Source: Parcubacteria group bacterium | GTDB taxonomy: Bacteria > Patescibacteriota > Minisyncoccia > Moranbacterales > JAKLHP01 | Direction of reading: 5' to 3' | NCBI GenBank assembly: GCA_041657845.1 | Contig: JBBABD010000001.1 | Coordinates: forward strand, 14,255-78,254 | DNA: 64,000 nt | Part shown: positions 3,899 to 36,604 of the stretch, one piece after another | How the letters are laid out: every line of letters begins with the position of its first letter | How positions within the stretch are numbered: the stretch's first letter is position 1 | Program-made: the position numbers and the translations under genes | The notes under the pieces: generated by a model | What the model was told of the DNA's origin: nothing | The model's input: only the letters and a program-made list of their open reading frames with translations | Database searches by the model: none

Positions 3899-4010
3899 GT
3901 CATTCCTGGCTTGACCAGGAATCTACGCCGTCGGATTACACTAGTCTTGATATTTATACATTAAGCTTGTGATTATCGTTTGTGTAGATTCCTGCTTTCG
4001 CAGGAATGAC
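3899..4010. repeat. MITE-like ~110-bp element, copy A, with 28-bp hairpin-forming terminal inverted repeats.
   Basis: The left end is 'gtcattcctggcttgaccaggaatctac' and the right end is 'gtagattcctgctttcgcaggaatgac'; each end is itself a stem-loop. The element is homologous to the reverse complement of 36495..36604. Confidence 0.7.
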
Positions 4011-4020
4011 AAAAGATTAA

Positions 4021-5952
4021 ATGGCATTTCGATTTATATCCTCACAATTCATCTTCTATATCTCAATAATCTTGGTTCTTTTCATTCCCGGCTATTTTTT
4101 GCTGCTCGCTATTGAATCCAAAAAGAAACTCTTTTCGTCTATTGAAAAATTTGTTTTTTCTTTCGGTTTCAGTATTATTATTGTCGACCTTCTGATGATG
4201 CTAATGGGAAGATTGAATATCCTATTCACTAAAATATCAATAATTCTAGGAATTTTTGTTTTTTCTGCTGTCTGTTTCGCGATTTATAAAATTAAGAATA
4301 AAAAACAAGGAGAAATAAAGGATAGTGCTTTTAATTTTTCTAAAAACCAAATCATCCTGATAATATTGCTCTTATTCTTAACAATTTTCATCAAAACCGC
4401 TTATCTTAAAAATTCTATTTTCCCCACCTCCACCGATCTCGGCCATCATATGTATTGGACAAAAACCATTGCCGAAACCGGGAAACTTCCAATTTATGCG
4501 GAAAGCGATATTATCCAAATTGATGGAAATTACCAAGTGAGCCAGCCGGAAAAAATTGCCGATTTTATTATCGGGGAACATCTAATTTTTGCAGCTGTGC
4601 AAATAATTTCCGGCGTTGAATTTGTCTCGTATTTTCCAATTCTAATTTTGTTTCTGGTCAATATTGTCAGCGTTTTGGCAATTTTCGTTACAACTATCCG
4701 GTTATTTGAAAATTACTCATTTGGAAAAAACGCTGGAATAATTTCACTTTTCCTGATCGGTCCGCTTTATGCAATTTCATCTTCACAGGCCAAATTTGTC
4801 AGCGGGGGAGTAATTGGCAACACGATAGGAAACTTGCTGATCCCCTTTTCGATATATTTTATTTTCCGCGCTCTCAAGGAAAAAAACTCGATTTTTCTTT
4901 CCCTATCTCTTCTCTCAACTCTCGGAATGGCTTATACCCATCATTTGACAACATTTATTTTTATCTTTATCTTTATTTTCAGCGCCATTATTTTCTCAAT
5001 TTTGAATTACAACGAAATAGGTTCTCATTTCAAGGAATGGATGAAAATAATTCTAAAACCTCAAATATTAATACTAATTTTTGTTTCCCTTCTCTTTGTT
5101 TTCGCAGTTTATATGCCAGCTTATCTCAACGCCAAGGCAGTTGGAACGGCAGTTGGCGGACCATCAAAAGATACTCGCGCCGGATTAACATTCAATCAGC
5201 TCAAGTTAACAGCAGGAGAATCGAGGATGATCTTGGGACTCGTTGGCGTTGTAATCTTAATCGCTATCAAAAAAAGAAAAAATTATGAAATTGCTTTCGT
5301 TTCTGGATGGGCTATTTCAATTTTAGTAATGTCTCTCTGGCCTCAGATCTTGCTTCTCGACCTTCCTTCCGCCAGAATCGCCAATTACGCTTCCTTTCCG
5401 CTCGCAATTTCCGGAGCCTTTGCTCTGGCTTATATTATAGATAAAATAAAATCTGCTGACGGAAAATATTATATAAATCAAAAATTGTTTTATGCTGTAT
5501 GCTTTATGCTATTTGTCTTTGCTTTAGCAAACGGATTTTACGATAATTCTCAATCCATTAAAGCCCAAAGCAATTATCAAAAAGCGCTTCAAACTGTTGA
5601 TGCTTCTGATTATCTTGGAAAAAATGCCACCAAATCAGATTTGGCAGTAAAAGACCACAACTATATTACTGCGGATTCTTGGATAAAGTTATCTTTTATG
5701 AACGGATACAATTATCCTTTCTCCAGAGGGTATTTCAAAAGATATGAAGATGAGACCAAGCCAAGGGAAATGTGCACGCTTTGGATGATTTCGACGCCCA
5801 ACACTCCGGAAGGACAAAAATGCTTCAATGATTTAGGGGTGAATTTTGCAATGGTCAATCCCCAATTCGACAGCGCCCAATTTCAAAAATCAAAAGAATT
5901 CTGGCAAGTATATGATGGGAAAGAAATAAATATTTATTACAGAAATAAATGA
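4021..5952 (+). CDS. Large polytopic membrane protein (643 aa) with a C-terminal soluble domain; possible GT-C-fold glycosyltransferase of unknown specificity.
   Basis: It has more than ten predicted TM helices and a ~160-aa extracytoplasmic C-terminal domain. Its architecture resembles other GT-C candidates in this window. Confidence 0.4.
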   Translation: MAFRFISSQFIFYISIILVLFIPGYFLLLAIESKKKLFSSIEKFVFSFGFSIIIVDLLMMLMGRLNILFTKISIILGIFVFSAVCFAIYKIKNKKQGEIKDSAFNFSKNQIILIILLLFLTIFIKTAYLKNSIFPTSTDLGHHMYWTKTIAETGKLPIYAESDIIQIDGNYQVSQPEKIADFIIGEHLIFAAVQIISGVEFVSYFPILILFLVNIVSVLAIFVTTIRLFENYSFGKNAGIISLFLIGPLYAISSSQAKFVSGGVIGNTIGNLLIPFSIYFIFRALKEKNSIFLSLSLLSTLGMAYTHHLTTFIFIFIFIFSAIIFSILNYNEIGSHFKEWMKIILKPQILILIFVSLLFVFAVYMPAYLNAKAVGTAVGGPSKDTRAGLTFNQLKLTAGESRMILGLVGVVILIAIKKRKNYEIAFVSGWAISILVMSLWPQILLLDLPSARIANYASFPLAISGAFALAYIIDKIKSADGKYYINQKLFYAVCFMLFVFALANGFYDNSQSIKAQSNYQKALQTVDASDYLGKNATKSDLAVKDHNYITADSWIKLSFMNGYNYPFSRGYFKRYEDETKPREMCTLWMISTPNTPEGQKCFNDLGVNFAMVNPQFDSAQFQKSKEFWQVYDGKEINIYYRNK

Positions 5953-6305
5953 AAAAAATAATCATCGCATTAATAATATTTCTTATTCTAAGCTTCGGTT
6001 TCCTGGCCTACGCCGAAACTCGCCAAGCGTCTCCGCAGTCCCAAAACTGGTGGGTCATTTATTTTGCAAACCCCAAAAACGACAACCTTAATTTTGTGAT
6101 TGAAAATAACAGCGACCAGACCAAATTCCACTGGGCGGTATTGAGCGATAAAGATATATTAAAAGAAGCGGATGTTGAAATAGCCAAAGGTGCGAAAAAG
6201 GAAATAAACCTTACGAAGTCCGACTTCGGAAATTTGAGCAACAAGAAAATCAGCATAACTGTAGTCGCTGATAACGAAAAAAAGGAAATATATAAAAACT
6301 TTTAA
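5949..6305 (+). CDS. Small secreted hypothetical protein (118 aa).
   Basis: It has an N-terminal signal peptide ('MKKIIIALIIFLILSFGFLAYA') and overlaps the upstream gene by 4 bp (ATGA). Confidence 0.4.
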   Translation: MKKIIIALIIFLILSFGFLAYAETRQASPQSQNWWVIYFANPKNDNLNFVIENNSDQTKFHWAVLSDKDILKEADVEIAKGAKKEINLTKSDFGNLSNKKISITVVADNEKKEIYKNF

Positions 6306-7429
6306 TGTATCTCGAATTGATGAAAAAAATACTTCTAGTCACTCGTCCAATTTGTCCGCCTTGGGATGAAGCTTCCAAGAATTTTGCCTATTATCTGGCC
6401 AAAAATATCAAAAACATCGAGGTTCATATTCTGACCAATGGAATTTTGCCAGATCTTCCGCAAAGCATTATCCAGGAAAATATCTACGATTCAAGCAGTT
6501 TCGGATTATCTCAAAAAATGAAACTCATTAAGTTTCTCCGAAAAAATAGAGGGACTTTCGATATCGTTCACTATCTTTTCACGCCGACAAAACTTAATTC
6601 GTTTTTAATAAAAACTTTTGCCAAATTAACCAAGGGAAAAACGATTCAAACTATCGCTACTCTCCGAGAAGATTTGTACTCCGATGAAGATTTAAAAAAG
6701 ATACTGTTCGCTGATTTGATAACCACCTACTCTGATTATTCCAAAAATGAATTAGAAAGATTGGGATTTGGCAGCACAAAGAGAATTTATCCCGGAATTG
6801 ATATTGATTTATTTTACCCCGCTCCAAAAAGTTTGGAACTTTTGAAAAAATTCGGTTTTGCGTCGGATGATTTTGTAATTAATTTTACCGGCGAATATAC
6901 CCGGCTTGGAGCGATTGATGATGTAATTAATAGTTTTATTGAAATATCCAAAAAGATACCCAACGCCAAATTATCGCTGGCCGTTCGGATAAAAAACGGC
7001 AATGACGCGCAAAAGAAAAATGAAGTAGCAGCAACATTAAAAAATAATAATATTTTCAACAGGGTTTCTTTTCAGTATGACGGAAGCTATGAGATGCAGG
7101 ACATTTTTAATCTTTGCGACGTCAGCATTTTTCCCGTCCAAAATATGAAAGGAAAATTCGATGTGCCTCTGGCCATTATTGAAGCAATGTCCTGCGAAAA
7201 ACCAGTGATCATTTCCGATTTGCCGATTCTCAGAGAATTCGCAAATGACCAAAATTCTGTTACAATAGAAGCAGGAAAAGCGAAACAGTTATCCGAAAAG
7301 ATTTTGGATGTTTATGAATATAAAGATCGTTATGTTGAAATTGGCAAGAATGCCAGAAAATACGTCGTAGAAAATTTCGACATCAAAAAAGTCGCAGAAA
7401 AATATCAAGAGATTTACAAAAATTTATAA
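6305..7429 (+). CDS. GT4-like glycosyltransferase.
   Basis: The C-terminal block 'LAIIEAMSCEKPVIISD' is typical of GT4 nucleotide-sugar binding domains. Confidence 0.6.
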   Translation: MYLELMKKILLVTRPICPPWDEASKNFAYYLAKNIKNIEVHILTNGILPDLPQSIIQENIYDSSSFGLSQKMKLIKFLRKNRGTFDIVHYLFTPTKLNSFLIKTFAKLTKGKTIQTIATLREDLYSDEDLKKILFADLITTYSDYSKNELERLGFGSTKRIYPGIDIDLFYPAPKSLELLKKFGFASDDFVINFTGEYTRLGAIDDVINSFIEISKKIPNAKLSLAVRIKNGNDAQKKNEVAATLKNNNIFNRVSFQYDGSYEMQDIFNLCDVSIFPVQNMKGKFDVPLAIIEAMSCEKPVIISDLPILREFANDQNSVTIEAGKAKQLSEKILDVYEYKDRYVEIGKNARKYVVENFDIKKVAEKYQEIYKNL

Positions 7430-7499
7430 GTCCTATAAGTCAAGTATGCCTAATATAACTAGTCTGTCTAACAGCAAAAAAGAATTTCAAACCCCGAAT

Positions 7500-8939
7500 A
7501 TGAAAATACCGGTTATTTTGCATGCCTCGGAAAATCTGCTTCCTAATGAAGAAACTTTTGAGCAATTGGAATATATTGCCGAAGATGAAAGATTTTTTCA
7601 TCATATTGCCGCTATGAGCGACGTTCATCCCAAAAAAGGACGAAAAGCTCCGACTGGAACTGTAGCAGCTAGCGAGCACTTCCTCTTTCCTCAAATTAAT
7701 GACACCGCTCCCAATTGCGGAATGCGGTTCCTTAAAACCGATTTGGATGAAAACAATACCCCGCCGGAAAAAATTGATGAACTTTTCAAGGAATTAGTGA
7801 AAGTTATTCCGACCAAAAAACTGCAAGGCGTTCCGATTCCCTATCAAATGGCCGTAGATATCGCTAGAGACGGAATTCATCCGCTTACTGAATATTTCCA
7901 GACCAGAACCAAAAATGAAATTGAAAATTCCTATGAAGGAGGAAATTTTTTTCGCAATGATATTCCGACTGTGCGGGAAATTTTAGATGTTGTGCCGAAA
8001 TTATTTCTGAAAATCGCCCAACATCGGCTGGGAATTTTGGGCGCGGCGGGAAATCATTTTTTGGATTTAATGAAAATTACTGAAATAAAAAATTCGGAAG
8101 TAGCGCAGAAATTCGGCTTGCGTCCCGGGCAATATATTTTTCTTATGCACACCGGATCGGGACTAGTCGGACAATATGTTTCCTATATGTACACTCCAAA
8201 AGCAAAAGAGCACAAAAGCCAGAAAATGATGCTGGAACTGGGAATCTCCCTTTTTGACAGCCAGCTCAAAAAAGTTTACAAAAATCTTTACCAAAAAATA
8301 AAGAAACATGAGAAATTGAAAAATTTCTTTGGATATGAAGATTCCAGCCTTGAAGGAAGAATGTTTATTAATGCCCATAGAGCTTCGGCTAATTTTGGCT
8401 TTGCCAACCGAACCGTGCTCACCGATCAAATAGACAAAGCTATGGAAAGAGTTTTTGGCCGGCAAGTTAGTTTGGATATGCTTTACGATTCTCCGCACAT
8501 TTCAATCGAAAAGGAAAATCATTTCGAAAAAGATGTCTGGGTTCATCGAAACGGATCGGTTCGTGCCAATGGCTCGGCAAGAATGCAGCACCATCCGATT
8601 TTCAAAGAAACCGGAGAACCGGTTTTTATTCCTTCTTCAATGGCTACTCCGGCTTATCTTGGCGTCGGAACGGATGAAAACGTTTCTACTTTCTTTTCCG
8701 CCGGACACGGAACCGGAAGAAGAAGAAATCCGAATCCGGATACTCCCGAAAATAAGAAAAAACTTTTTGACAAAGTTAGAGAGAAAAAAGTTAAATTATA
8801 TAATGCCCAATCCAAAGAGGTCATCCTGCAAGACAGCGCGTATTACAAAGACGTGGAAGAAGTAATCAGCGGGATGGTGGAAAACAGGATAATAAATGTA
8901 GTCGCCAAAATGGAACCGGTGGCGGTGCTAATGTATTAG
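7500..8939 (+). CDS. RtcB-like RNA ligase family protein (divergent).
   Basis: The N-terminus 'MKIPVILHASENLL' resembles the RtcB N-terminus. Other matches are 'AAMSDVHPKKG' (metal-binding PDxHxGxG block), 'NCGMRF', 'VHRNGSVRA', 'IPSSMATPAYL' and the C-terminal 'HGTGRR' (the HGAGR block of RtcB). Confidence 0.55.
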   Translation: MKIPVILHASENLLPNEETFEQLEYIAEDERFFHHIAAMSDVHPKKGRKAPTGTVAASEHFLFPQINDTAPNCGMRFLKTDLDENNTPPEKIDELFKELVKVIPTKKLQGVPIPYQMAVDIARDGIHPLTEYFQTRTKNEIENSYEGGNFFRNDIPTVREILDVVPKLFLKIAQHRLGILGAAGNHFLDLMKITEIKNSEVAQKFGLRPGQYIFLMHTGSGLVGQYVSYMYTPKAKEHKSQKMMLELGISLFDSQLKKVYKNLYQKIKKHEKLKNFFGYEDSSLEGRMFINAHRASANFGFANRTVLTDQIDKAMERVFGRQVSLDMLYDSPHISIEKENHFEKDVWVHRNGSVRANGSARMQHHPIFKETGEPVFIPSSMATPAYLGVGTDENVSTFFSAGHGTGRRRNPNPDTPENKKKLFDKVREKKVKLYNAQSKEVILQDSAYYKDVEEVISGMVENRIINVVAKMEPVAVLMY

Positions 8940-8947
8940 AAAATTCA

Positions 8948-9559
8948 ATGAAAATAATCTCGATCTCCGGCCTCGACGGCTCAGGAAAATCTACTCAAAT
9001 CCAGCTATTAAAAAAATATCTAGAATCGCAAGGCAAGCGGGTTTTTTATTTTCACGCGATTGAGTTTGGAATCGCCAACAAAATTTCTTCCCATCATTGC
9101 TGTGATTATGGAAAAGAAAATGAGAACAAAGAGAAAAGCGTAACCAGGTCAAATAAACTGGGAATAATCCTTCGAAAGATTTTTTTAAGAATAGACTTCT
9201 GGCGTTTCAAAAAATTGTTTAAAAAATTAGAAAAAGAACATTTTGATTTTATTTTAAGCGACAGATTTTTTTACGATTCCTTGATTAATATTAGCTATTT
9301 GGAAAATTGTGGCATTGAAAATTGGAAATTTATTGAAAATTGGAAATTGAAAATTGAAAATTTATCAATCTACCTCCAAACAAATCCAAAAATAATAATG
9401 CAACGCGAAAGAAAACCGGATCAAGGAATTGAATATTTGGAAAAGAAAAAAGAAATTTATGATAAATACGCCGAAATTTGGAATTTGAAAATTATTGACG
9501 GAAACCGAACGCAGGAAGAAGTTTTCGAGGATGTGAAAAGGTCTTCAGGCGTTGCCTAA
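8948..9559 (+). CDS. P-loop nucleoside/nucleotide kinase, thymidylate-kinase-like.
   Basis: It has the Walker A motif 'ISGLDGSGKSTQ' and 'LSDRFFYDSLI', which corresponds to the DRY/LID region of Tmk-like kinases. There is a Cys-rich insertion and an internal in-frame nucleotide tandem repeat at 9300..9365. Confidence 0.55.
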   Translation: MKIISISGLDGSGKSTQIQLLKKYLESQGKRVFYFHAIEFGIANKISSHHCCDYGKENENKEKSVTRSNKLGIILRKIFLRIDFWRFKKLFKKLEKEHFDFILSDRFFYDSLINISYLENCGIENWKFIENWKLKIENLSIYLQTNPKIIMQRERKPDQGIEYLEKKKEIYDKYAEIWNLKIIDGNRTQEEVFEDVKRSSGVA

Positions 9560-9564
9560 AGACC

Positions 9565-9810
9565 TTAAACAAAGACGGATCCTTTCCCGTTTCCGTTTCT
9601 TCTTGTTGATAGTTTCCCGTCAACAAAAAATGTAATTTCCCCTCTCGCAGTGAGAACAGGATCTCCCGTATGATACGAATAGATTCTTCTGCATACCGGA
9701 CAAACACAGGCATGAATCCAGCTCTGACTATTTAACTTTCCAACCTGAATTCTCACTTTATCAGAAATGCCGACACAGACCTCGGATCTACATTCGCATA
9801 CAATTTCCAT
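9565..9810 (-). CDS. Small zinc-ribbon protein (81 aa).
   Basis: An 'aaggaggg' ribosome-binding site lies 7 nt upstream of the ATG on the minus strand. Two Cys pairs are present ('CECRSEVC' and 'CVCPVCRR'). GC content is higher than the flanks. Confidence 0.45.
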   Translation of the reverse strand: MEIVCECRSEVCVGISDKVRIQVGKLNSQSWIHACVCPVCRRIYSYHTGDPVLTARGEITFFVDGKLSTRRNGNGKGSVFV

Positions 9811-9890
9811 GTTGTTCCCTCCTTATTTTTTTGAAAACCATATTGAATCCATTATTATAAATCTATGGCGCAAAGTCAAATGCAAAACTT

Positions 9891-11459: not shown

Positions 11460-11531
11460 GCTCAATTGACTTAACAATTTGGTCTGGTACAATAGAATTA
11501 AATTGAATTAAAATCAGGGGAAAAAAGAGAA

Positions 11532-14036: not shown

Positions 14037-14050
14037 ACTGTCTTGAATCG

Positions 14051-15589
14051 CTATTTCTGATTTCCCCACCGATAAACCAGTACATCTCCCCTCACCTGAG
14101 GATTGCTGACTTTTGAAAAGTTTTTTTCGACATAATCGACAGCTTCACTGGAAATATAAGTTTCGTCATTGGTGGAAATAATAAACCATCCGCTTGGATT
14201 TTGACTGGCAATGTCCTGGATCTCGGCAACTGATAATTTTTCCTTGGAAAGTTCTCCTCCAAAATCAAAAACTTTTACTTTCGCTCCGCTCCAATAATAG
14301 TTTCGAAAATTTCTGGTTATCAGCGCATCTCCATCTTTTTTGTATTTTTTGAAATAAGTGAAAATTTTTCGATAATTGGGGTTGCTGGACTGGGATGTTT
14401 GGTTATAAGTATTGTCGCTGGTTTCAAAAAAGTAAGCATAATTAGGAAGAATCAAAAGTGAAATAATAATGGTCGTGAGATAGGCTTTCTTTCCGTAATT
14501 TTTCAAGTTTTCTTTGAAAAATTCAGCGGCAAAATATATTCCCGAGGCAATAAGGATTATTCCGAAAGATTTTATGAAAAAGATATATTGATTTCCGACA
14601 TTTCTTCCCCACAAAAAAATCGCGGAAAAAAGAACAACAAAGAAAGACATTGCCAGAAAACTTCCTTCTTTTGACATTTTTTGCTTTTTGGAAATAAAAT
14701 ATATTCCCAAAATAATAAATATGAAAGCTAGGATTCCGTTGGTGTAATCAGAAAGTGAAATTCTTGCGTATTCGAAGTGGCTGGTAAAGAAAGTCAATCC
14801 GGCTGTAAACGAAACTACTGTTTTGGGAATTGCAATAATAGCTCCAATAATCCCTAAAATGCTTAGCCCGAAAATTACCGAATATTTGTTCAGGTGCGAC
14901 TTGTTTTTGTTCCAATTCAAAACAGTCCAAAAAAGCAGGTAAAATCCGACTGCAAAAACGATATTGGCCGTGAGCTGGTGGGTCGCTAGGCTCAAAATTC
15001 CCACAGCAAGAGCGGGAATTAGGTATAGTGGGTTAATATCCCATTTTTCACTAATCTTCTTCAGAAAACCGATTTTGCCCTTATAATTGCTCTCCAGGAA
15101 ACGAAATAAAAGCCAAGAGAGAGCGAGATAAACCGGCAAAAACATTGCGTACATCCGAAGTTTCCTATCAAACTCAATTCCGGAAGTACTGATAGCGAAA
15201 AGAAAAGCGCCAATTAGGCCTATCATCTTCTTTTTGGTAAAATCGGTTGCCACAAAATAAATTAGAGCTATTGTTAAGATTCCCCATAAAACGCTTATTG
15301 TTCGCGCCGTACTTTCCGTTGGAGGGAGAAAATTAAAAAGCTCGGCCACCTGCCATTTATATACTCCAGCGCGCTCATCTCTAGCTTGAAAAACGTTATC
15401 GGCATTCACTTTTTCAAAATTAAAATCCCAATTTTGCCAAATACCGGTTTTGAAATAAGCATAGGAAGAATTTATGTCCAAAAATTCATCTGCCACGAAA
15501 GAATTATTTCCCAACTTATAGAATCGGAGAAACGCTCCGAGCAGAATTATAATTATCAGCGCTGTGTAAATATTTTTTCTAGAAAACAT
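14051..15589 (-). CDS. GT-C-fold membrane glycosyltransferase (ArnT/GT83-GT39-like).
   Basis: The N-terminal TM is followed by 'FLRFYKLGNNSFVADEFLD' (the DE motif of lipid-carrier-dependent glycosyltransferases). It is polytopic with a C-terminal soluble domain. Confidence 0.6.
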   Translation of the reverse strand: MFSRKNIYTALIIIILLGAFLRFYKLGNNSFVADEFLDINSSYAYFKTGIWQNWDFNFEKVNADNVFQARDERAGVYKWQVAELFNFLPPTESTARTISVLWGILTIALIYFVATDFTKKKMIGLIGAFLFAISTSGIEFDRKLRMYAMFLPVYLALSWLLFRFLESNYKGKIGFLKKISEKWDINPLYLIPALAVGILSLATHQLTANIVFAVGFYLLFWTVLNWNKNKSHLNKYSVIFGLSILGIIGAIIAIPKTVVSFTAGLTFFTSHFEYARISLSDYTNGILAFIFIILGIYFISKKQKMSKEGSFLAMSFFVVLFSAIFLWGRNVGNQYIFFIKSFGIILIASGIYFAAEFFKENLKNYGKKAYLTTIIISLLILPNYAYFFETSDNTYNQTSQSSNPNYRKIFTYFKKYKKDGDALITRNFRNYYWSGAKVKVFDFGGELSKEKLSVAEIQDIASQNPSGWFIISTNDETYISSEAVDYVEKNFSKVSNPQVRGDVLVYRWGNQK

Positions 15590-15740
15590 ATGAGCAAATT
15601 TACAATTTTCAATTTACAATTTTCAAACAATTTTCAATTTCCCAATTAATTAATTTTCAAACATTTGGAAATTTAGTCATTGTTTCGCCAGCCGGCGAAT
15701 TCATTGTAAATTGATCATTGTTCATTGAAAATTATAAAGA
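15590..15740. promoter_or_regulatory. AT-rich intergenic region with short tandem repeats between two minus-strand GT-C genes; probable promoter region.
   Basis: Tandem units 'tttacaattttcaa'/'acaattttcaa'/'ttaattttcaaaca' and 'cattgtaaattg'/'cattgttcattg' are visible. Confidence 0.25.
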
Positions 15741-21622: not shown

Positions 21623-22402
21623 ATGATTAAAAATATATTTGAAAAAATTATTACTTTTTTCGGGAAAAATAAAAAAACAATTATCCTTGTCATTTTGCTA
21701 ATAGTTGCCGGAGGATTATATTATGAATTTATTTATCTCGCCAAGCCGAATATTGAAAACAAAAAATCAATAGAAGCCGCCCTTGTCGCCGATATTCACG
21801 TTGGTCCAGAAAAAAAGGGGCATAGTGAAAATGCCATTGTCCACCCCAAAGAATACAAAAATAATTTGAAACCGCTTATTGATTCAAAACCAGATTTGAT
21901 TATTACCTTGGGAGACAATGTAAATGACAATAAAAAATGCCACCCGTACGCCGATGATTTAAAAAAATATCTTTCTAAATTCAATGTACTTTGGGGCAAG
22001 GGAAATCATGACAAAGATTGTTTTCCTGTTTTTAGCGAACAAGCCTATTATTATCATGATTATAGCAATGCTGGATGGAGAATTGTTATGCTGGATCACG
22101 ACATTGATATTGACCCTGATGAACTCAATTGGCTCCGCGAAACATTGAAAACCGACAAGAAAGTTTTAATTGTCACTCATGTTCCCTTTTTCTCTCCCAG
22201 CCGAGATGAAAACGCCCTGCTTCCGCAATATACTGATGCGGAAAAAGTCATTTCCGAAAGCGGAAATGTGAAATATGTTTTTATGGGACATTTGCACAGC
22301 CGCCTTTGGGACAAAGAATATAACGGTGTGCATTATTACATCATTCCTTCCGTCTCCGGAGACGAATATCCAAAGTATTTTATGAAACTAACCTTAAATT
22401 AA
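21623..22402 (+). CDS. Membrane-anchored metallophosphoesterase (calcineurin-like).
   Basis: It has an N-terminal TM helix and the motifs 'ADIHVG', 'LGDNVND', 'GKGNHD', 'VTHVPFF' and 'GHLH'. Confidence 0.75.
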   Translation: MIKNIFEKIITFFGKNKKTIILVILLIVAGGLYYEFIYLAKPNIENKKSIEAALVADIHVGPEKKGHSENAIVHPKEYKNNLKPLIDSKPDLIITLGDNVNDNKKCHPYADDLKKYLSKFNVLWGKGNHDKDCFPVFSEQAYYYHDYSNAGWRIVMLDHDIDIDPDELNWLRETLKTDKKVLIVTHVPFFSPSRDENALLPQYTDAEKVISESGNVKYVFMGHLHSRLWDKEYNGVHYYIIPSVSGDEYPKYFMKLTLN

Positions 22403-25901: not shown

Positions 25902-25923
25902 AAGAATATAATCCGTTAATTCT

Positions 25924-27105: not shown

Positions 27106-27181
27106 ATAACAATATGCTATGTCTTTTGCTTTTTTAATTTATTGTCTTGTTACATGCTACATGTTTCATGTTACATGAATT
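27106..27181. promoter_or_regulatory. Intergenic palindrome/direct-repeat cluster between ugd and the GT4 gene (possible terminator or operator).
   Basis: An inverted repeat 'catatagcata...tatgctatg' is followed by three copies of 'tacatg'. Confidence 0.2.
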
Positions 27182-28489: not shown

Positions 28490-28614
28490 TTTATCAATTT
28501 ATGAAATATTCGGATAATGAAATAAAAATACTTACTTTATACCTAAATGTATCCTATGACATTTTCCCGATTTCATTATTAATGATTAATTTATTTTTTA
28601 TTAAAATTATTCAA

Positions 28615-29334
28615 TCAGCAAATAATCGAGCCTGCCTTTTCTCCCAGTATTATTTTTTTCAAAGTTCCTTTTTTGTAAATATTGAAAACAACTACGTGCA
28701 AACCATTGCTTCTGCACAATTCAATAGCCGATTTGTCCATTACTTTTATTTTATCATTTTTGAAAGCTTCTTCAAGCGTCAATCTATCAATTTTTTTAGC
28801 TTTAGGATTATTTATTGGATCATCATTATAAACTCCATCTACTTTTGTAGCCTTAAATATTGCTTGGCATCCTACTTCTAACGCTCTCATTGTTGCAGCT
28901 GTATCAGTTGTAATAAAGGGGAGGCCGGTTCCCCCTCCAAATATGACAATCCTTCCCTTCTCAAGATGTCTAATAGATTTTCTCCTAACATAACTTTCTG
29001 CAATTTGTTTCATCTCTATGGCAGACTGTAATCTTACCTGAAGTCCTCTTTGCTCTAAAATATCTTGAAGAGCCATTCCGTTAAAAATGGTGGCTAGCAT
29101 TCCCATGTAATCAGCCGTAGCTCTATCCAAACCATTTTTACTGCCTGCAACTCCCCTAAATATATTACCCCCGCCCACAACAATAGCTATTTCTATTCCT
29201 AGCTTATGCGCTTCAAAAATTTCTGAAGCAATATAATTCATAAAAATTGGATCAATCCCATATTCTCTTTCTCCTTTCATAGCCTCACCGGATAGTTTAA
29301 GCAATATTCTCTTGTAATTCATTTTTTTACTCAT
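28615..29334 (-). CDS. pyrH: UMP kinase.
   Basis: It has 'ILLKLSGEAMKG', 'IAIVVGGGNIFRG' and the full amino-acid kinase fold signature. Confidence 0.9.
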   Translation of the reverse strand: MSKKMNYKRILLKLSGEAMKGEREYGIDPIFMNYIASEIFEAHKLGIEIAIVVGGGNIFRGVAGSKNGLDRATADYMGMLATIFNGMALQDILEQRGLQVRLQSAIEMKQIAESYVRRKSIRHLEKGRIVIFGGGTGLPFITTDTAATMRALEVGCQAIFKATKVDGVYNDDPINNPKAKKIDRLTLEEAFKNDKIKVMDKSAIELCRSNGLHVVVFNIYKKGTLKKIILGEKAGSIIC

Positions 29335-29395
29335 TTTTATTTATATAGAATTTACACTTTTTAGCAAAAACTGCAAAAGTTTATAAATCTATAAA

Positions 29396-30865
29396 TCAAA
29401 ATAATTTAACATTTACTAGAGGATTTCTGCCCTTGTATCTTTTTGATGCCGATTGATAAACAGCACTACATAGGCTTATCCCGTTTTTATGACTAGTTAT
29501 CTCTGAAACAGGATTTATTTTATTTCCTTGAATAAATGAAATAAATTCTAAGATTGCTTCTCTCCTAGCATCTTCTTGGTGTCCTCTTGACCTTCCATGA
29601 AGATAGTTTTTACCCAATTCCTTAATGCTAAATTTTTCGTAATTTTTCCATTCAGAAAAATAATTGTCATTTCTGAAAACATGAATATCCAAATGATATT
29701 CATTTCCTACTTCATACAAATTATTTGTAATATTAGGTTTTACTTCTCTCGATTGAAATGAATTGAAATGAATTGCCTGAAACGGACCTTGCTCTATGAT
29801 ATGCGACTCATGTCTTATCCGTCCATTTCCTTTATACAAATCCTTTCCGGCTAAACTCAACCAACCTCTTTTAGAAAAACCATTATGAACGAGATTGACA
29901 CTAGCTAAAGTAATAATAGACTTATCTCTCTTGAAAGCAAAGGAGCAGAAAGAATCTATTTCTCCAAAACGTTTATATAATTTCTTTAATTTTTCGAAAT
30001 TATACTTGTTATATGAATTAAAACTAGGAAAAATCTTCTCATAATCTTCCTTTCCAATCTGATTCAAAAAATCCGAAGGCCTCATAAAATTTGAAAATAC
30101 ATCGACATTGTTTGCCTTTTTTCCCTCATCAGCCGCTTTCATGAGCCACATAATTATATCAAAAAAATGATAACCGCTATGTGAACATTTTCCATAACCA
30201 TGGTTAAATGAATGGTAATCCACATCCATAATCTCATTTGGCAATCTCCACTGCCCATCGGAATGGAAAGATTGAATTGATGTTATTGGACAATTCGTTT
30301 TGTCAAACACCTCCCTGACTAGATTTCTAATTTTTTCAAAAGCAGGATGATATCTTCTTTGAACTGCTAAACTGAATAATATTCTTACGTATTTTTTCTT
30401 GGCCTTTTCGTAAACTTTAATAATTTTTTCATAATCATTAATTAATTTTTTCGCTGAAAATTTTGAGGTACTCAAATTATTATGCACCGACAATGGCTTA
30501 TCCATCAAAACATTCAGTCCTTTTTCTAGCGCCCACTGAGCATAAACAATATGACTTTCTGGACCAGTAGAAATAATGACCCCTTGAATGGAAAATTTAT
30601 CAACAATCTCATCTAGCTTCATTTTTATCGAAGATCTCAACCCATTGGATTTGAAATCTTTAGATAAAAAATAATGCATCTCCAGACTGGGATTACCTTT
30701 TTCAGAAAGATAATTCTCAATATCATCCTTTTTTTCTATGAGATCTAAAACACAAACAATCCGAAAATTATATTTTTCTCCATCCTTTAAAAACACAGGA
30801 AAATATATTCTTTTTGCATGAGATCCTAGACCAATAAGCAGCACATTTGTTATTTTTTTATTCAT
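29396..30865 (-). CDS. Gfo/Idh/MocA-family NAD(P)-dependent oxidoreductase (long form, 489 aa).
   Basis: It has 'VLLIGLGSHAKRIY' (Rossmann) and 'VIISTGPESHIVYAQWALEKGLNVLMDKPLS', the conserved EKP block of the family. Confidence 0.65.
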   Translation of the reverse strand: MNKKITNVLLIGLGSHAKRIYFPVFLKDGEKYNFRIVCVLDLIEKKDDIENYLSEKGNPSLEMHYFLSKDFKSNGLRSSIKMKLDEIVDKFSIQGVIISTGPESHIVYAQWALEKGLNVLMDKPLSVHNNLSTSKFSAKKLINDYEKIIKVYEKAKKKYVRILFSLAVQRRYHPAFEKIRNLVREVFDKTNCPITSIQSFHSDGQWRLPNEIMDVDYHSFNHGYGKCSHSGYHFFDIIMWLMKAADEGKKANNVDVFSNFMRPSDFLNQIGKEDYEKIFPSFNSYNKYNFEKLKKLYKRFGEIDSFCSFAFKRDKSIITLASVNLVHNGFSKRGWLSLAGKDLYKGNGRIRHESHIIEQGPFQAIHFNSFQSREVKPNITNNLYEVGNEYHLDIHVFRNDNYFSEWKNYEKFSIKELGKNYLHGRSRGHQEDARREAILEFISFIQGNKINPVSEITSHKNGISLCSAVYQSASKRYKGRNPLVNVKLF

Positions 30866-30875
30866 ACTAATAAAT

Positions 30876-32252
30876 CTAGTGGATCTTTTCCCTCATTAAA
30901 TGAGCAAAACAAAATGGATCCCCTCCCAATAGCTTCCCGCCCTTAATCTTCCCTCCGGTCAAAATGACAGTTGATCTGCATTTTCCTCTGCATTCTTTTT
31001 TATAGAAACTACATTTCAAACAATCTATCTTTTTAGCATTTCTATAATGTTCCGCCATTGAATGATGCCATATTTCATCAACTGACATGCCTATAGCATT
31101 CGGACCAATAAATTCGGGGTAATCAATAAGAAATGGGCATGCCACAACCCTACCGTCAGGAAGAATGGAAATATCCCTAATTAATGCTCCGCATTCTGAA
31201 TTATCAAAGGGGAACGGATTTTGAGATTTATCCTTTAAATTATAATTAAACAAATCCTTGTGTTTTAAGAGGACTTTAATTCCAGAATTGATAACTTCTT
31301 TTTTACTTCTTAAATCTTGAATTTTTTTAGCAAATTTTTTATATTGGTTCGCAGTTAGAATCAATTTATTGGTATCGTTGTCAATCGCTCTTCCTGATGG
31401 TTTTAATGGAATAAAATTTATGTCGCATTTATATTCCATAGCCACTTCCACTAAAAAATCTGTTTCTCTTATATTATCAGATCCAATAGCCACATTGATT
31501 ACAACTGGTATTTTATTTTTCGAATTTTCATTATATTCATGAAGTTTTTTAAGATTTTCCGCTACCAAATTATATGCTCCTTTTGTTCTTCTTTTATCAT
31601 TGATTTTTTCACTGCCCTCAAGACTTATTACCAAATCCCTAATGCCAGAATTAATAATTTTTTTAAACATTTCATTATTCCAGCACCCATTGCTATTGAG
31701 ACTCACCACCATCCCTAAACCATTTGCGTATTTTATAGTTTCAAATAAATATTTATCAACTGTCGGTTCACCGCCGGTAATCCGCCACTCCGTCGCACCA
31801 GCATCAAAAAACTTTTTAATGATTTTTCTTGTTTGATTGATTGTGCGTTTTTTTTCTGAAAAATTGATATTTCCACTTCTAGCGTAGCAATGATGACAGT
31901 TTAAGTTACACTTTCTTGTAAATGTATCATATACCCTCAGAGGCGCACTGAGACAATTTTTTGATTTTATACTTTTAGATTTTACCAGCCTGCAATTACT
32001 AATACATATTTTATATGCATTTTTTTTAATTAATCCCATTTTCACAAAATCCTCAACATTTTTTTCATTGCTTTCGTTTATAGATTTAATATCTATAGAT
32101 CCTTCATGACAAAGATACTCCAAAAAGTTAAATTTTCCTGAATCTATAATACTTATTTCTCCAGATAGAGAATCATATATCAAACCTCCAAAATATTCAT
32201 TTCTTATGGTGAATCTTCTGGATCTAAATTTCTTTTTATTTTTTCTGATCAT
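30876..32252 (-). CDS. Radical SAM enzyme with a C-terminal SPASM/twitch-type auxiliary Fe-S domain and a ~110-aa N-terminal extension.
   Basis: The radical-SAM motif 'CNLNCHHC' (CX3CX2C) is present. The C-terminus carries 'C-x13-G-x4-C' and 'CLKCSFYKKECRGKC' (Cx2Cx6Cx3C). A 10-bp gap separates it from the downstream oxidoreductase. Confidence 0.8.
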   Translation of the reverse strand: MIRKNKKKFRSRRFTIRNEYFGGLIYDSLSGEISIIDSGKFNFLEYLCHEGSIDIKSINESNEKNVEDFVKMGLIKKNAYKICISNCRLVKSKSIKSKNCLSAPLRVYDTFTRKCNLNCHHCYARSGNINFSEKKRTINQTRKIIKKFFDAGATEWRITGGEPTVDKYLFETIKYANGLGMVVSLNSNGCWNNEMFKKIINSGIRDLVISLEGSEKINDKRRTKGAYNLVAENLKKLHEYNENSKNKIPVVINVAIGSDNIRETDFLVEVAMEYKCDINFIPLKPSGRAIDNDTNKLILTANQYKKFAKKIQDLRSKKEVINSGIKVLLKHKDLFNYNLKDKSQNPFPFDNSECGALIRDISILPDGRVVACPFLIDYPEFIGPNAIGMSVDEIWHHSMAEHYRNAKKIDCLKCSFYKKECRGKCRSTVILTGGKIKGGKLLGGDPFCFAHLMREKIH

Positions 32253-32348
32253 TATTTTAATCTTAAATGAAAAATTTAATCATAAAACGTTAAAAAACCA
32301 ACAAATTAAATCCTTAATTCGCAACTTTTTTAATAATATTAAATCCGT

Positions 32349-33287
32349 TCAATTCTCAATTATTTCTTTTACCGAATAATTCATCGTTCCTCTGGTCTTG
32401 TAATAATTTTTGAGCAGAATGTCAGCCAGAAGTCCAAAGATAAAAAGCTGGATTCCCACCATAATTAGAAGTGCGCCGATAAGAGGCCAGATTCTTTCTG
32501 AAAGAGCTGTTCTGAAAAATATTTTTTCCACTGCCATCCAGATTAAAACTGCAAAGCCGGCAAACAGACAGAACATTCCTCCGCCACCGAAAAGATGGAC
32601 CGGACGATTGGAATATTTTCGCCAAAACCAAATGGAAACCATATCCACAATGCCTTTGACTCCCCTTTTCCAATTGTATTTCGTTGTTCCGTGAACTCGG
32701 GGGAAATGATTGACTTTTATTTCTCCGACTTTATATCCATCAAACTGCAAAATAGCTGGCATAAAACGATGCATTTCTCCAAAAAGGTCGACATCTTTGA
32801 AACATTCGCGCTTGTAAGCTTTGAGACTGCACCCGCTATCATGAATATTGTCTTCTACCAGAACCTTCCGAAGCAGATTGGCCATTCGAGAAGAAAGCTT
32901 TTTCATAAAATCATCTTTCCTTTGCCATCTCCATCCGGAAACCACATCGAATCCTTCATTCATTTTTTCTAATAATAATTTGATGTCTTTGGGATCATTT
33001 TGCAGATCGCCGTCCATCGTGATGATAACATCGCCTTTGGCCGCTTTTATTCCGGCATCAAATCCGGCCGTCTGGCCGTAATTTTTTCGGAACCGGATAA
33101 GTTTTAACGGTGTCAGTCCTTCGCAATTTTTGGCCGTTTCATCAGTCGATCCGTCATCGATAAAAATAATCTCGTAGGTTTTGCCGAGAGGCTCGCAAGC
33201 CTCGACAATCCTCTTGTGAAGTTCTTTGGCGTTGTCTTCCTCATTATAGATAGGAACGACAACGGAAATGTCTAGTTTATTGTCCAT
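32349..33287 (-). CDS. GT2 polyprenyl-phosphate glycosyltransferase (ArnC/GtrB/DPM1-like) with C-terminal TM helices.
   Basis: It has 'ISVVVPIYNEEDN...IIFIDDGSTDET', 'ITMDGDLQNDP' and two C-terminal TM helices. Confidence 0.85.
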   Translation of the reverse strand: MDNKLDISVVVPIYNEEDNAKELHKRIVEACEPLGKTYEIIFIDDGSTDETAKNCEGLTPLKLIRFRKNYGQTAGFDAGIKAAKGDVIITMDGDLQNDPKDIKLLLEKMNEGFDVVSGWRWQRKDDFMKKLSSRMANLLRKVLVEDNIHDSGCSLKAYKRECFKDVDLFGEMHRFMPAILQFDGYKVGEIKVNHFPRVHGTTKYNWKRGVKGIVDMVSIWFWRKYSNRPVHLFGGGGMFCLFAGFAVLIWMAVEKIFFRTALSERIWPLIGALLIMVGIQLFIFGLLADILLKNYYKTRGTMNYSVKEIIEN

Positions 33288-33354
33288 AATAATGATTTTA
33301 TCCGATTTCTAAAGAATTGGCAAATGCACCGAATCTAGAAAATCAATAGCCATA

Positions 33355-33428
33355 AAACAGAAGCTTGACTTTAATAATTATGGTGTTAAAATACACATAT
33401 ACATTAATAATTATGGTGTTAATTATAT
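33355..33428 (+). promoter_or_regulatory. Putative sigma70-type promoter with flanking direct repeats upstream of the AAA ATPase gene.
   Basis: 'ttgact' is followed by a 16-nt spacer and 'taaaat'. A 19-bp direct repeat 'ttaataattatggtgttaa' occurs twice, overlapping the -10 element and the start codon. Confidence 0.3.
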
Positions 33429-34668
33429 GATAGATATTCGCAGAAAATTATTCGATGAATTGAAGAATAACCTTAAAACAAAGGAAATTTTACTAATTGT
33501 TGGACCTCGCCAAGCCGGAAAAACAACCTTAATGAACAAACTCCGGATTTTCCTTGAGGAAAAGGGAGAAAAAAGCGTCTTTTTGAATTTGGACTTTGAA
33601 AAAGATGCGGCTTCGTTCGTTTCCCAAGATGCTCTTGTTAGAAAATTAGAATTGGAATTAGGAAAAGAAAAAGGGTTTGTTTTTATAGACGAAATTCAAA
33701 GGAAAGAAAATGCCGGACTTTTTTTGAAAGGAATCTACGATATGGAATTGCCATACAAATTCATTATCTCCGGTTCGGGAAGTTTGGAGCTTAAAGAAAA
33801 AATACATGAATCTCTGGCTGGAAGAAAAAGAATATTTGAACTTTCCACGGTCAGCTTCGAAGAATTTGTTAATTTTAAAACTAACTACAAATACAGCCAA
33901 AAACTGAACGATTTTTTTTCCATTGAAAATGAAACATCATTGTCTCTTTTGAATGAATATCTTAATTTTGGAGGATATCCGAGAGTCATCCTAGAAAGCA
34001 TGCTCGCGGAAAAAAATAGGACTATCAGTGAAATATTCAGAAGCTACACCGAAAAAGATATCGCCTATTTTTTAGGAGCAAACAAGATCGAAAAATTCGG
34101 ATTGTTAATAAAACTTTTAGCCGACCAATCCGGAAAAATTATTAACTATTCGGAATTGGCCAAAGAAACAGGAATAAGTTTTCAGACGTTGAAAAATTAT
34201 CTTTGGTATGCTGAAAAAACCTTTTCTATTCGGACAATATCACCGTATTTCAAAAACAAACGCAAAGAAATAACCCGTTCTCCGCTAGCATATTTCTACG
34301 ATTTGGGTTTTAGAAATTTCTCGCTAGGGTTATTTGGCAATCTTGCTCAACCAGACCAGCTTGGATTTGTTTTTCAAAATCTTGTCGCAAACAGACTGCA
34401 TGAAAAAATAGCAAATACTGCTAAAAACTTGGGTTTCTGGAGGACACTGGATAAAGCCGAGGTTGATTTCATAATTAGTGAGGGGAAATCAGCTCTTCCT
34501 GTTGAAGTAAAATATTCACGGCTTAAAAAGCCTCAAATAACCAGATCTCTTGGAAATTTCATAAAAGCATATTCTCCCACTGAAGCTTGGATTGTAAATT
34601 TGACTTTAGAAACAGAAATAAAAATAGAGAATACAACAGTTAAATTCATACCTTTTTACAAATTATAA
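33427..34668 (+). CDS. AAA+ ATPase (AAA_14 / DUF4143-type ATP-binding protein).
   Basis: It has the Walker A motif 'LLIVGPRQAGKTTL' and Walker B motif 'FVFIDEIQ'. The C-terminal domain is typical of DUF4143. Confidence 0.65.
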   Translation: MIDIRRKLFDELKNNLKTKEILLIVGPRQAGKTTLMNKLRIFLEEKGEKSVFLNLDFEKDAASFVSQDALVRKLELELGKEKGFVFIDEIQRKENAGLFLKGIYDMELPYKFIISGSGSLELKEKIHESLAGRKRIFELSTVSFEEFVNFKTNYKYSQKLNDFFSIENETSLSLLNEYLNFGGYPRVILESMLAEKNRTISEIFRSYTEKDIAYFLGANKIEKFGLLIKLLADQSGKIINYSELAKETGISFQTLKNYLWYAEKTFSIRTISPYFKNKRKEITRSPLAYFYDLGFRNFSLGLFGNLAQPDQLGFVFQNLVANRLHEKIANTAKNLGFWRTLDKAEVDFIISEGKSALPVEVKYSRLKKPQITRSLGNFIKAYSPTEAWIVNLTLETEIKIENTTVKFIPFYKL

Positions 34669-34710
34669 AGTAATTGACGCTCGAACAGACTGGCAGTATA
34701 ATTTATTTAT

Positions 34711-34887
34711 GAACATTACGAAATGCGATATTTGCAAAAAAACAATAAAGAAAGACTCAAAAAGCCTATATATAGGATTGGGTAGTATTTTTTCTAATCA
34801 TATTGAAATATGTGAAAATTGCGGAAAACCTGTAATGAAACTGCTAAAGGATAAGAAGCTAATAGAAAGTAAGCGAACTAGCTAGAA
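34711..34887 (+). CDS. Possible small zinc-ribbon protein (58 aa).
   Basis: 'CDICKK...CENCGK' forms two CxxC pairs. No clear Shine-Dalgarno sequence is seen. Confidence 0.25.
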
Positions 34888-34980
34888 AAAAATTCAGATG
34901 CAAGACTCAAAAAACCAGCCGTGCGCCGGATTTTTGTTTGGCAATAAGTCCAAAATTTGCTATAATTGAAGCGTTAAAAA

Positions 34981-36450
34981 TTGAAAAACAAAATGATGAA
35001 GAAAATAATCGCTTTTTTTGTGTTTTTGTCATTCTTGTCCGCTTTCTTCCCCAGCACTAGACCCGCCAAGGCGGATGATAGTCTTGTTTCGGTATATAGC
35101 TTTTGGAGCAAAACATCTTCTTATCGTTTTTTGACTTCATCGGCATCGGAAATCAAAAGCCTCTCTTCAAACAGCAACTGGGAAAGTGAAGGAATCTTGT
35201 GGTATGCCTATTCATCAAAGCAAAATGATACTGTTCCTATTTATAGAATAAAAAGTAGCACATACTCATATTATTATTACACGGCTTCAAAATCAAAAAG
35301 GAGCAGTTTGATAAAAACAAAGGGCTGGGTCGACAAAGGAATTGCTTTCTATGCCTATGCCAGCAAGCAAGATGCCACAACGCCTGTATATGCGCTAAAA
35401 AATTCAAAAACCAAAAAATATTTCTATACTTCAAGCCCGGGAGAAAAAAATTGTATGCTAACGGACAGCACATGGACTGGCGGAGAAACGGCTTTTTGGG
35501 TTCCAAAAGAAAATGCCAACGTCTCAGATTATGAAACCACCTGCCGAGCATCTTATGGACCGGAAATTAGCGTTGGTCTCTGGAGCTATACCAAAAAGGA
35601 TTTGCAAAGTGGATATTTCAAAATAAAAGCCAACAAGGATTATACGATAAAAGATAAGGATGGAGACAGAATAACTACAATTTCGGCAGGCACCATAACA
35701 AAAGTGAAATACAATGGAGATAAGGATCTTTTGGTTTATAGCTCAATAAAAGACAGGACATTCAGCAAAGAAGTGAGCTTTGACGCCAAAGATGGAAATA
35801 ATTCCAATCTGGTTTTTGACATCTACCGCCCCGGATCCAGCTACGATCAATATCGGGGAAAGATAAAAATAAAATATTATGACAACGATAACATTTGGGT
35901 TGTCAACACTCTTCCGATGGAACAATATGTCTGGGGAATGGGAGAAACGACGGGAACCGGACCATTCGAGCACACCAAAGTTATGACCACAATGTTCCGA
36001 ACTTACGGCTATTGGTACAAAGAATACGCCACCAAATATTTGAAATATGGATTCACCATCCGAAGCGATTCAGGATCCCAAATTTATCGAGGTTACGATT
36101 GGGAGAAAAAATATCCCAATATCAAAAAAGCGGCGGAAAGTACCAAGGGAATCATTGTTAAATATAAAAACGAGATTGCGCTGACTCCATACAGTTCTTG
36201 GAGCGATGGAAGAACTCGAAGTTTTGAAGAACGCTGGGGATCGGATGATTACCCATGGTGTAAATCAGTAAAGGATCCGTACGGAAAACATCCATCGCTT
36301 AGTACCAAAAAGCTGGAAGCGGCCGGAAATCATATGGTCGGACTGATTGCCAACGGATCACTAAAACTGGCCGGAAGCAAATACAAAAAGAAATATGACT
36401 GGATACTCAAATATTATTACACCAAAGTATCGCTTGCGAAAATGTATTAA
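34981..36450 (+). CDS. Secreted SpoIID/LytB-domain protein with an N-terminal array of ~45-aa repeats.
   Basis: It has a signal peptide and three repeats of the 'W..EGI..YAY.S.Q..T.P(I/V)Y' type. The C-terminal 'NTLPMEQYVWGMGE...FRTYGYW' matches the SpoIID/LytB motif. Confidence 0.5.
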   Translation: MKNKMMKKIIAFFVFLSFLSAFFPSTRPAKADDSLVSVYSFWSKTSSYRFLTSSASEIKSLSSNSNWESEGILWYAYSSKQNDTVPIYRIKSSTYSYYYYTASKSKRSSLIKTKGWVDKGIAFYAYASKQDATTPVYALKNSKTKKYFYTSSPGEKNCMLTDSTWTGGETAFWVPKENANVSDYETTCRASYGPEISVGLWSYTKKDLQSGYFKIKANKDYTIKDKDGDRITTISAGTITKVKYNGDKDLLVYSSIKDRTFSKEVSFDAKDGNNSNLVFDIYRPGSSYDQYRGKIKIKYYDNDNIWVVNTLPMEQYVWGMGETTGTGPFEHTKVMTTMFRTYGYWYKEYATKYLKYGFTIRSDSGSQIYRGYDWEKKYPNIKKAAESTKGIIVKYKNEIALTPYSSWSDGRTRSFEERWGSDDYPWCKSVKDPYGKHPSLSTKKLEAAGNHMVGLIANGSLKLAGSKYKKKYDWILKYYYTKVSLAKMY

Positions 36451-36494
36451 CGGAGTTATAAGATTGGGACTTACGCATTTTAAATAATAATTAT

Positions 36495-36604
36495 GTCATC
36501 CTGCGAAAGCAGGAATCTACGCAAACGATAATTGAGAGTTTAACGTGTAAATATCATACTGGCGTAATTCGATAATGTAGATTCCTGGTCAAGCCAGGAA
36601 TGAC
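36495..36604. repeat. MITE-like element, copy B, inverted relative to copy A.
   Basis: The reverse complement aligns to 3899..4010. The terminal hairpins are identical apart from one indel, and the internal ~55 bp is ~75% identical. Confidence 0.7.

Follow-up and report, generated by a model that had tools for sequence, protein, structure and literature searches.

A dispersed ~110-bp repeat, probably a doublet of NTS/dRS3-type hairpins, inserted at two gene junctions of a Moranbacteria-like glycosylation locus

The 64-kb stretch of DNA analysed here (the window: positions 14,255 to 78,254 of contig JBBABD010000001.1, assembly GCA_041657845.1, from a Parcubacteria group bacterium) contains two copies of a ~110-bp element. 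They are reverse complements of each other and lie where a preliminary description had placed them, at 3899-4010 on the + strand and at 36495-36604 on the - strand. Taken as a whole, the evidence is best explained, with a probability that we put at about 0.7, by each sequence being a non-autonomous intergenic repeat in which two outward-facing hairpin modules of the type referred to as NTS, dRS3 or Ssn-related motif (SRM) surround a 57-nt core. Both copies are lineage-specific insertions at tight gene junctions of a collinear glycosylation locus in a Moranbacteria-like bacterium of the candidate phyla radiation (CPR), and the two hairpins are maintained as local stem-loops through compensatory substitutions.

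Pairwise alignment of the left copy with the reverse complement of the right one finds 94 of 112 positions identical (84%). The near-identity of the ends had been correctly seen: the left 28 nt agree at 28/28 positions, which is also the longest identical run, and the right modules at 26/27, the right copy having a 1-nt deletion (GCAGGA-TGAC). The centre is less alike than the ~75% given for it, at 40/57 (70%). Each end is, as described, a perfect 8-bp stem-loop, ATTCCTGG-CTTGA-CCAGGAAT (class B) or ATTCCTGC-TTTC-GCAGGAAT (class A, with the loop GAAA on the other strand), and, leaving the loops aside, either end of an element is the inverted repeat of its other end (GTCATTCCTG...CAGGAATCTAC). 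The 28-mer has two matches in the window and none in 100 dinucleotide shuffles, and the match between copies is far above chance. A covariance model of the family scores the copies at 131 (left) and 124 bits (right) and the next-best site of the window at 12.8 bits (E~1.7). Pattern, repeat and covariance-model scans of the 64 kb found no third copy; the density is two copies where none is expected. The parts of the two copies are the following (L numbers, here and below, denote loci outside the window).

3899-4010, + strand: left copy, a bare 112-bp core element made up of module B, then the 57-nt core, then module A; 130.9 bits.
3899-3926, + strand: class B hairpin module, outward-facing, GTC-ATTCCTGG-CTTGA-CCAGGAAT-CTAC; motif match, with compensated stem pairs in the family.
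3927-3983, no strand: 57-nt core (linker), from the alignment; kept within the element family, not in the doublets of other genomes.
3984-4010, - strand: class A hairpin module, outward-facing, GTCATTCCTGCGAAAGCAGGAATCTAC on the - strand; NTS-like, with a GAAA loop.
36463-36494, - strand: outer extension of ~32 nt of the right copy, common to the non-orthologous loci L127, L131 and L142; a longer, ~158-bp subfamily.
36495-36604, - strand: right copy, a 110-bp core element, inverted; alignment, and 123.6 bits with the covariance model.
36495-36520, + strand: class A module of the right copy, with the 1-nt deletion in its outer stem (GTCATCCTGCGAAAGCAGGAATCTAC); alignment.
36577-36604, - strand: class B module of the right copy, same sequence as 3899-3926; 28-mer match.
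36605-36621, - strand: outer extension of ~16 nt at the opposite flank of the right copy; its TTACGCGTTT is an inverted repeat of AAATGCGTAA in 36463-36494.

The element is not peculiar to this genome. Scanning metagenome contigs with a pattern specific to it (core plus hairpin) turned up 29 further loci with a ~111-bp element that has sharp boundaries (TGTCATTCC...GGAATGACA) and unrelated flanks. Twenty-four full-length copies and the two of the window have a common start, (T)GTCATTCC, and a common end, GGAATGAC(A), and are 110-112 bp long, or 130 bp where a loop insertion is present. The T before and the A after the element are the only constant flanking letters of these 26 copies, and no target-site duplication is visible among them. 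A dispersed repeat family of the kind that had been proposed, with an architecture like that of miniature inverted-repeat transposable elements (MITEs) or repetitive extragenic palindromic (REP) sequences, is borne out by these loci and their uniform boundaries. Since the 57-nt core is conserved as well, the similarity is not confined to generic hairpins. As far as the window and these loci can show, the conditions set for giving up the preliminary description have not come about. Where a contig carries two copies, ordinary housekeeping genes separate them: a peptidyl-tRNA hydrolase gene in L122; Ddl and hydrogenase-like subunits, among others, in L145. No copies were found in viral contigs. 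L125, which is 99.9% identical to the window over 1457 bp and collinear with it through the right copy, is an independent assembly of the window's population, and L150 begins inside the right element, a repeat-induced contig break.

The right copy has ~16 and ~32 extra flanking nucleotides in common with L127, L131 and L142. No window protein matches those contigs by tblastn, and they are ruled out as orthologous sites. The right copy therefore belongs to an extended subfamily, the left copy being the bare core, and with the two copies coming from different subfamilies their inverted arrangement 32.5 kb apart is incidental.

Three stem pairs of the left (class B) hairpin, columns 9-11 with 17-19, change on both sides yet remain paired, the stem variants being CTGG/CCAG, CGCA/TGCG, CGGG/CCCG and CTGA/TCAG. 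This amounts to 29 cells with a double change; pairing holds in 99.7% of cells, and the covariation score is reached in none of 500 shuffles and collapses in slid controls. A long hairpin that pairs both ends is the predicted minimum-energy fold of the window copies (z = -6.7 and -4.7). Across the family, that long-range pairing is broken in about half of the copies at exactly the variable columns, and no covariation for it was found. Substitutions at these columns disrupt the distant pairing but preserve the local stems, so the two ends are probably independent hairpin modules.

What the two sites look like when empty can be seen in relatives. Homologues of the flanking proteins put the window near Candidatus Moranbacteria, and in these relatives gene order is the same across both sites and the elements are absent. 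At the left site, the GT4 and DUF1616 genes of L157 and L158 overlap by 8 nt, as against a 132-nt spacer in the window. At the right site, 10-13 nt separate a SpoIID-like from a membrane-protein gene in L151-L153 and L156; the distance is 62 nt in L154 and L155, and the window spacer is 194 nt. Thus both copies are insertions into a conserved locus, and the block between them is no unit and is not inverted. They lie between co-directional + strand genes, yet in opposite orientations, the left copy 10 nt past the stop of 2785-3888 and 10 nt ahead of the ATG at 4021, and the right core beginning 44 nt past the stop of 34981-36450. (The ORF called at 36600-37175 starts within the right element; its true start is probably the ATG at 36645.) The element ends encode no protein.

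The preliminary description had seen in the two copies the brackets of a glycosylation block, possibly a composite unit, that homologous recombination could invert. Neither idea has held up. By Pfam typing, glycosylation and envelope genes (for glycosyltransferases, flippases and enzymes of sugar-nucleotide metabolism) are present to either side of each element, and within the block there are unrelated housekeeping genes as well: RtcB, thymidylate kinase, an amino-acid-kinase-family gene and a radical SAM gene. There is no GC step at either element. The orientation of the block in the window is that of all relatives examined, the right junction is the same in L125, and the longest identical run available is the 28-nt one already mentioned. 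No cognate transposase is linked to the elements.

The hairpin module, written generally as GTC-ATTCCYGC-loop-GCRGGAAT-C, ranges far beyond this element family. A scan of one genome per species finds GTCATTCCTG-N5-9-CAGGAATCTAC at at least 120 loci; the matches listed include Chloroflexota, Flavobacteriaceae, several Patescibacteria lineages, Planctomycetota, Rickettsiales, Campylobacterota and others, and about half of the distinct contexts among them are outward-facing inverted doublets. The doublets of these other genomes have linkers of 9-103 nt, with no relation from one genome to the next, and their partner stems covary. Clustering of the ORFs within 400 nt of 120 hairpin loci yielded no recurrent protein family.

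A module of this form has a published counterpart. The Neisseria NTS of Chenal et al. (Nat Commun 2025, PMC11893778), CGTCATTCCCGCGMAVGCGGGAATCYRG, encompasses dRS3 and has been generalised by these authors to the SRM. It is the single-stranded DNA (ssDNA) target of SsnA, a small GIY-YIG nuclease, and is bound as a folded hairpin in ssDNA. Binding needs a C directly 3' of the palindrome, the most crucial base; cleavage needs GTC directly 5' of the palindrome and takes place a few nucleotides upstream; the ssnA gene is often arranged as NTS-ssnA-NTS. The bases in question are those that the window element keeps. GTC stands 5' of the palindrome in all four window modules, and in the family alignment (A2) G1 and T2 are invariant, C3 is found in 20 of 21 copies and the mirrored GAC of the right end is invariant. 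The C of GGAAT-C (column 25) is invariant too, as is the mirrored G of G-ATTCC at column 89, within a range (columns 74-96) whose invariance is there by construction because the search pattern fixed those columns. The class A module of the left copy differs from the NTS consensus chiefly in a single stem position, where a T:A pair stands for C:G, and class A fits the published SRM pattern once that kind of change is allowed (one compensated stem pair, at positions V and B, relaxed). A relative of the window organism, L154, has a letter-perfect NTS doublet.

Other arrangements of the module were met in passing. In Ignavibacteria (L032, 1177-1556) it forms a short direct-repeat array with successive copies that include some 52 bp apart; the segments between hairpins are also repeated, which makes the array like those of neisserial intergenic mosaic elements (NIMEs) and not like CRISPR. 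A CRISPR-like reading of the 28-nt module is ruled out: the window units are isolated, and this sole array has repeated "spacers". The Caldilineaceae metagenome-assembled genome H76_764 (L002, L003, L008 and other loci) carries a longer repeat, which includes an NTS doublet with a 19-nt linker, in at least 28 near-identical copies. Many of these sit where a contig ends, and a recent burst in this one Chloroflexota genome is suggested by that. In the window itself, GTCATTTCCGAAAGCGGAAATG at 22247-22271 (+ strand) is an SRM-like GTC plus 7-bp hairpin inside the metallophosphoesterase ORF 21623-22402, and is probably coincidental.

Genes for small GIY-YIG proteins accompany the hairpins elsewhere. 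In L022 (Saccharibacteria), a 95-aa GIY-YIG gene lies between two outward-facing hairpins, the layout of the window element with a gene replacing the core; in L031, a GIY-YIG gene has a copy of a ~150-bp doublet on either side. Pfam PF01541 was confirmed in the four GIY-YIG ORFs scanned. The L022-type protein, for which no PDB sequence match was found, is 67-75% identical across Chloroflexota, CPR, Planctomycetota and Cyanobacteria. Three homologues of it were picked by protein similarity alone, in L161 (Daviesbacteria), L162 (Berkelbacteria) and L163, and all three genes are hairpin-flanked, so that the L022-type genes examined, three of them in CPR genomes, have hairpins on both sides or within 60 nt in five cases out of five. 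The flanking hairpins of L161 and L162 include both window classes, the T:A variant of class A and class B with its CTTGA loop, and the best covariance-model match outside the element family, at 51 bits, is a doublet just downstream of the L161 gene.

There are also points that weigh against assigning the window element to the NTS/SRM class, beyond the alignment columns fixed by the search. The published SRM pattern, HGTCWYN(0-2)YYVSBRHN(0-5)WNVSBRGN(0-2)RNCYNB, matches none of the four window modules, and class B, with its CTTGA loop, fails it more broadly, even after the relaxation that admits class A. No GIY-YIG ORF or ssn gene is present in the 64-kb window, so that the cognate enzyme has to be inferred here, and the ~70 kb of contigs with this element family contain no GIY-YIG gene except one of another type in L144. 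L022 and L031 were located by way of the hairpin and are a biased sample. Finally, mobilisation driven by Ssn is only hypothesised in PMC11893778. The L144 gene (3168-3590) is ruled out as the cognate enzyme: it is of a different, tRNA-associated subtype without hairpin flanks, it lies between a partial duplicate of the 5' half of a tRNA and the intact tRNA, no GTCATTCC hairpins are near it, and it looks like a tRNA-gene-targeted GIY-YIG insertion.

If the NTS/SRM assignment is correct, the hairpins would be ssDNA recognition sites of a small Ssn-type GIY-YIG nuclease encoded elsewhere in the genome, and by the published rules for SsnA one strand would be cut at one outer boundary of the element and the other strand at the other. 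The layout is that of an SRM-ssn-SRM unit, except that a short core stands where the gene would be, and on the simplest reading the element would be a gene-less miniature of such a unit, or a single NIME-like dRS3-RS-dRS3 unit. It would have spread either by breakage and repair of ssDNA that depend on Ssn or by recombining with incoming DNA, and its likely present-day effect would be to mark ssDNA for cleavage in DNA uptake or replication, not to regulate neighbouring genes. A bolder version, which we hold to be possible and somewhat doubtful, makes SRM-ssn-SRM an autonomous element like an insertion sequence, with Ssn as its transposase and with gene-less doublets such as the 110-bp element as its MITEs. 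The clean presence and absence of both copies at tight junctions is compatible with that version and is no proof of it. If it were true, this would be a transposition system run by a class of nuclease for which no part in cut-or-copy transposition is known, and one at work even in the minimal genomes of CPR bacteria.

The alternative that survives best takes the element for a REPIN, or bacterial interspersed mosaic element (BIME), in other words for a REP doublet moved in trans by a REP-associated tyrosine transposase (RAYT), a Y1 HUH enzyme, the module then being GTAG plus palindrome on the complementary strand. This would account for two inverted palindromic units with a spacer and without target duplication (PMC3337134), for the GTAG that stands ahead of the palindrome on the complementary strand within this element family and for the single long hairpin into which the window copies can be folded; moreover, Y1 transposase genes are present in the window (47348-47767, - strand) and in the CPR loci L154 and L161. 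The window enzyme, however, is an IS200 equivalog, an IS200-type TnpA (NF033573, 123 bits) and not a RAYT (score 21.9 bits, cutoff 80), and no such hairpins are found within 500 nt of it. The Y1_Tnp genes at L154 11628-12314 and L161 5132-5782, encoding proteins of 216-228 aa, are within a few kb of NTS doublets and not flanked by them; the L154 protein, the only one of the two to be typed, scores below the RAYT threshold (36.5 bits against 80). Outside the element family, GTAG gives way to ATGG, GTGG or CYRG, whereas the bases that matter on the NTS reading, GTC and C, are retained, and covariation favours the local hairpins over the long one. On this balance we regard a REPIN origin as rather unlikely.

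We give still less credence to a role at the level of RNA, in which the hairpins would be terminators, attenuators or mRNA-stabilising structures between operon genes and would have been spread or retained for that reason. Their intergenic placement just past stop codons and their stable GC-rich stems in an AT-rich genome are what such a role would call for, and REP-type elements are known to have been co-opted in this way (PMC3337134). A function as terminators had in fact been proposed for the two copies. No hairpin-plus-T-tract site coincides with either of them, however, and they are oppositely oriented relative to the same direction of transcription. Rfam has no match at gathering score anywhere in the window, and its permissive mode gives only sub-threshold noise at the left element (25 bits at best, against 66). 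(There are no tRNAs in the window.) A near-identical module that recurs across phyla beside GIY-YIG genes indicates instead a DNA site recognised by a protein.

It is very unlikely that the element is a miniature, PATE-like derivative of IS200/IS605 mobilised by the IS200 TnpA at 47348-47767. This enzyme is encoded 11 kb away, and the IS200/IS605 family does recognise subterminal ssDNA hairpins and makes no target duplication. The ends of the window IS200, however, lack hairpins of the GTCATTCC type, IS200/IS605 end hairpins have the same orientation on one strand and are not inverted, and tblastn finds no IS200 in 150 other loci, those carrying the element included. As assembled, moreover, a homopolymer frameshift deprives the TnpA of its catalytic Tyr. 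One A added to an A5 run would restore the canonical ...IKKYIREQQEEDDKY* C-terminus, and a G21 homopolymer lies ~60 nt downstream (about 47250-47270); the frameshift marks either a pseudogene or a homopolymer assembly error. Least probable of all is that the glycosylation genes form a composite or invertible 32.5-kb unit with one copy at each end, a notion whose sole support is the pair of inverted copies with identical 28-nt ends, and which the element-free relatives with the same gene order across both boundaries, the gene content of the block and beyond it, the even GC, the right junction of L125 and the 16% divergence of copies from different subfamilies all count against.

Several features of the window stand apart from the question of the hairpins. 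An AAA_14/DUF4143 ATPase gene (33427-34668) and a PDDEXK_3 nuclease-fold gene (37222-37617) flank the neighbourhood of the right copy. Neither is in any of the called-gene lists of the syntenic L151, L152, L154 and L156, and they are therefore further lineage-specific insertions near the right element. From ~42000 to ~56300 the GC content is lower (0.28-0.33, as against ~0.36) and the DNA holds, apart from the IS200, an SLFN/AlbA_2+wHTH protein (52778-53290), an AbiEii/AbiEi toxin-antitoxin pair (53548-54854) and a Fic protein (55181-56212); this looks like an accessory or defence patch within the glycosylation region. Just upstream of the ATG at 1265, at 1223-1263, is a conserved motif, AAATTTGTATATTTGTA-N5-ATTCGTAATTCGTAG, that also occurs in L129, L130 (twice) and L137 and may be a lineage-specific promoter or operator element. 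A 66-nt inverted repeat at 9298-9363 and 15596-15661, 77% complementary, has an abundance of GAAAATTGGAAATT units, and L124 and L135 have matches to its 9321-9362 portion.

The outcome removes a tempting yet mistaken reading, that of a mobile or invertible glycosylation island, and places the elements instead in the world of NTS/dRS3/SRM hairpins described in 2025. That world thereby gains Moranbacteria-like Patescibacteria, where it takes the shape of a doublet of fixed length whose core is conserved. The comparison of filled and empty orthologous sites indicates that doublets arrive as discrete units, something only hypothesised in the source paper. There is a practical side as well, in that repeats of this kind break short-read assemblies: L150 starts in the right copy, and many contigs of the Caldilineaceae genome break off in that genome's own hairpin-doublet repeat. 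In CPR bacteria, which are believed to rely on DNA uptake, an ssDNA restriction or marking system of the Ssn/NTS type would therefore be worth testing for.

Among known systems, classical bacterial MITEs (the Correia elements, for example) are likewise short and intergenic, with terminal inverted repeats and with presence or absence varying between relatives. The window element differs in lacking a target-site duplication, in having ends that are themselves self-complementary hairpins and in that no DDE transposase with matching ends was found for it. REPINs and BIMEs with their RAYTs (Bertels & Rainey 2011, PMC3116915; PMC3337134) come closer, being dispersed, intergenic, non-autonomous units of ~90-110 bp in which two short inverted palindromes enclose a spacer and no target is duplicated. 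In contrast, the window element has no linked RAYT, its long hairpin is not kept by covariation, and its conserved flanking bases fit the NTS reading better than a conserved GTAG.

In the NIMEs of Neisseria (Bentley et al. 2007, PMC1797815), a 20-bp dRS3, ATTCCC-N8-GGGAAT, surrounds repeat sequences (RS) of 19-214 bp that fall into more than 100 families. Like the window elements, they are intergenic and set palindromic repeats around a repeat sequence, with hairpins more GC-rich than the core, and isolated dRS3-RS-dRS3 units exist. The window modules depart from the dRS3 consensus (ATTCCT-N8-AGGAAT and ATTCCT-N9-AGGAAT), and the elements are single units rather than arrays, with one core family and in another phylum. 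From the NTS/SRM and SsnA system (PMC11893778) the window element differs in hairpins that fail the degenerate pattern (T:A for C:G in the stem of one, the CTTGA loop of class B in the other), in a pair that encloses a conserved 57-nt core and not a gene, as a dispersed unit of fixed length, and in a Moranbacteria-like CPR host with no ssn gene in the 64 kb at hand. What the two have in common is the module itself, GTC followed by an ATTCC-stem-loop-stem-GGAAT hairpin and C, with both critical features, the 5' GTC and the 3' C, kept; a wide spread across phyla; the outward-facing inverted pair, as in SRM-ssn-SRM; and, in CPR genomes, L022-type GIY-YIG genes flanked by both hairpin classes of the window element.

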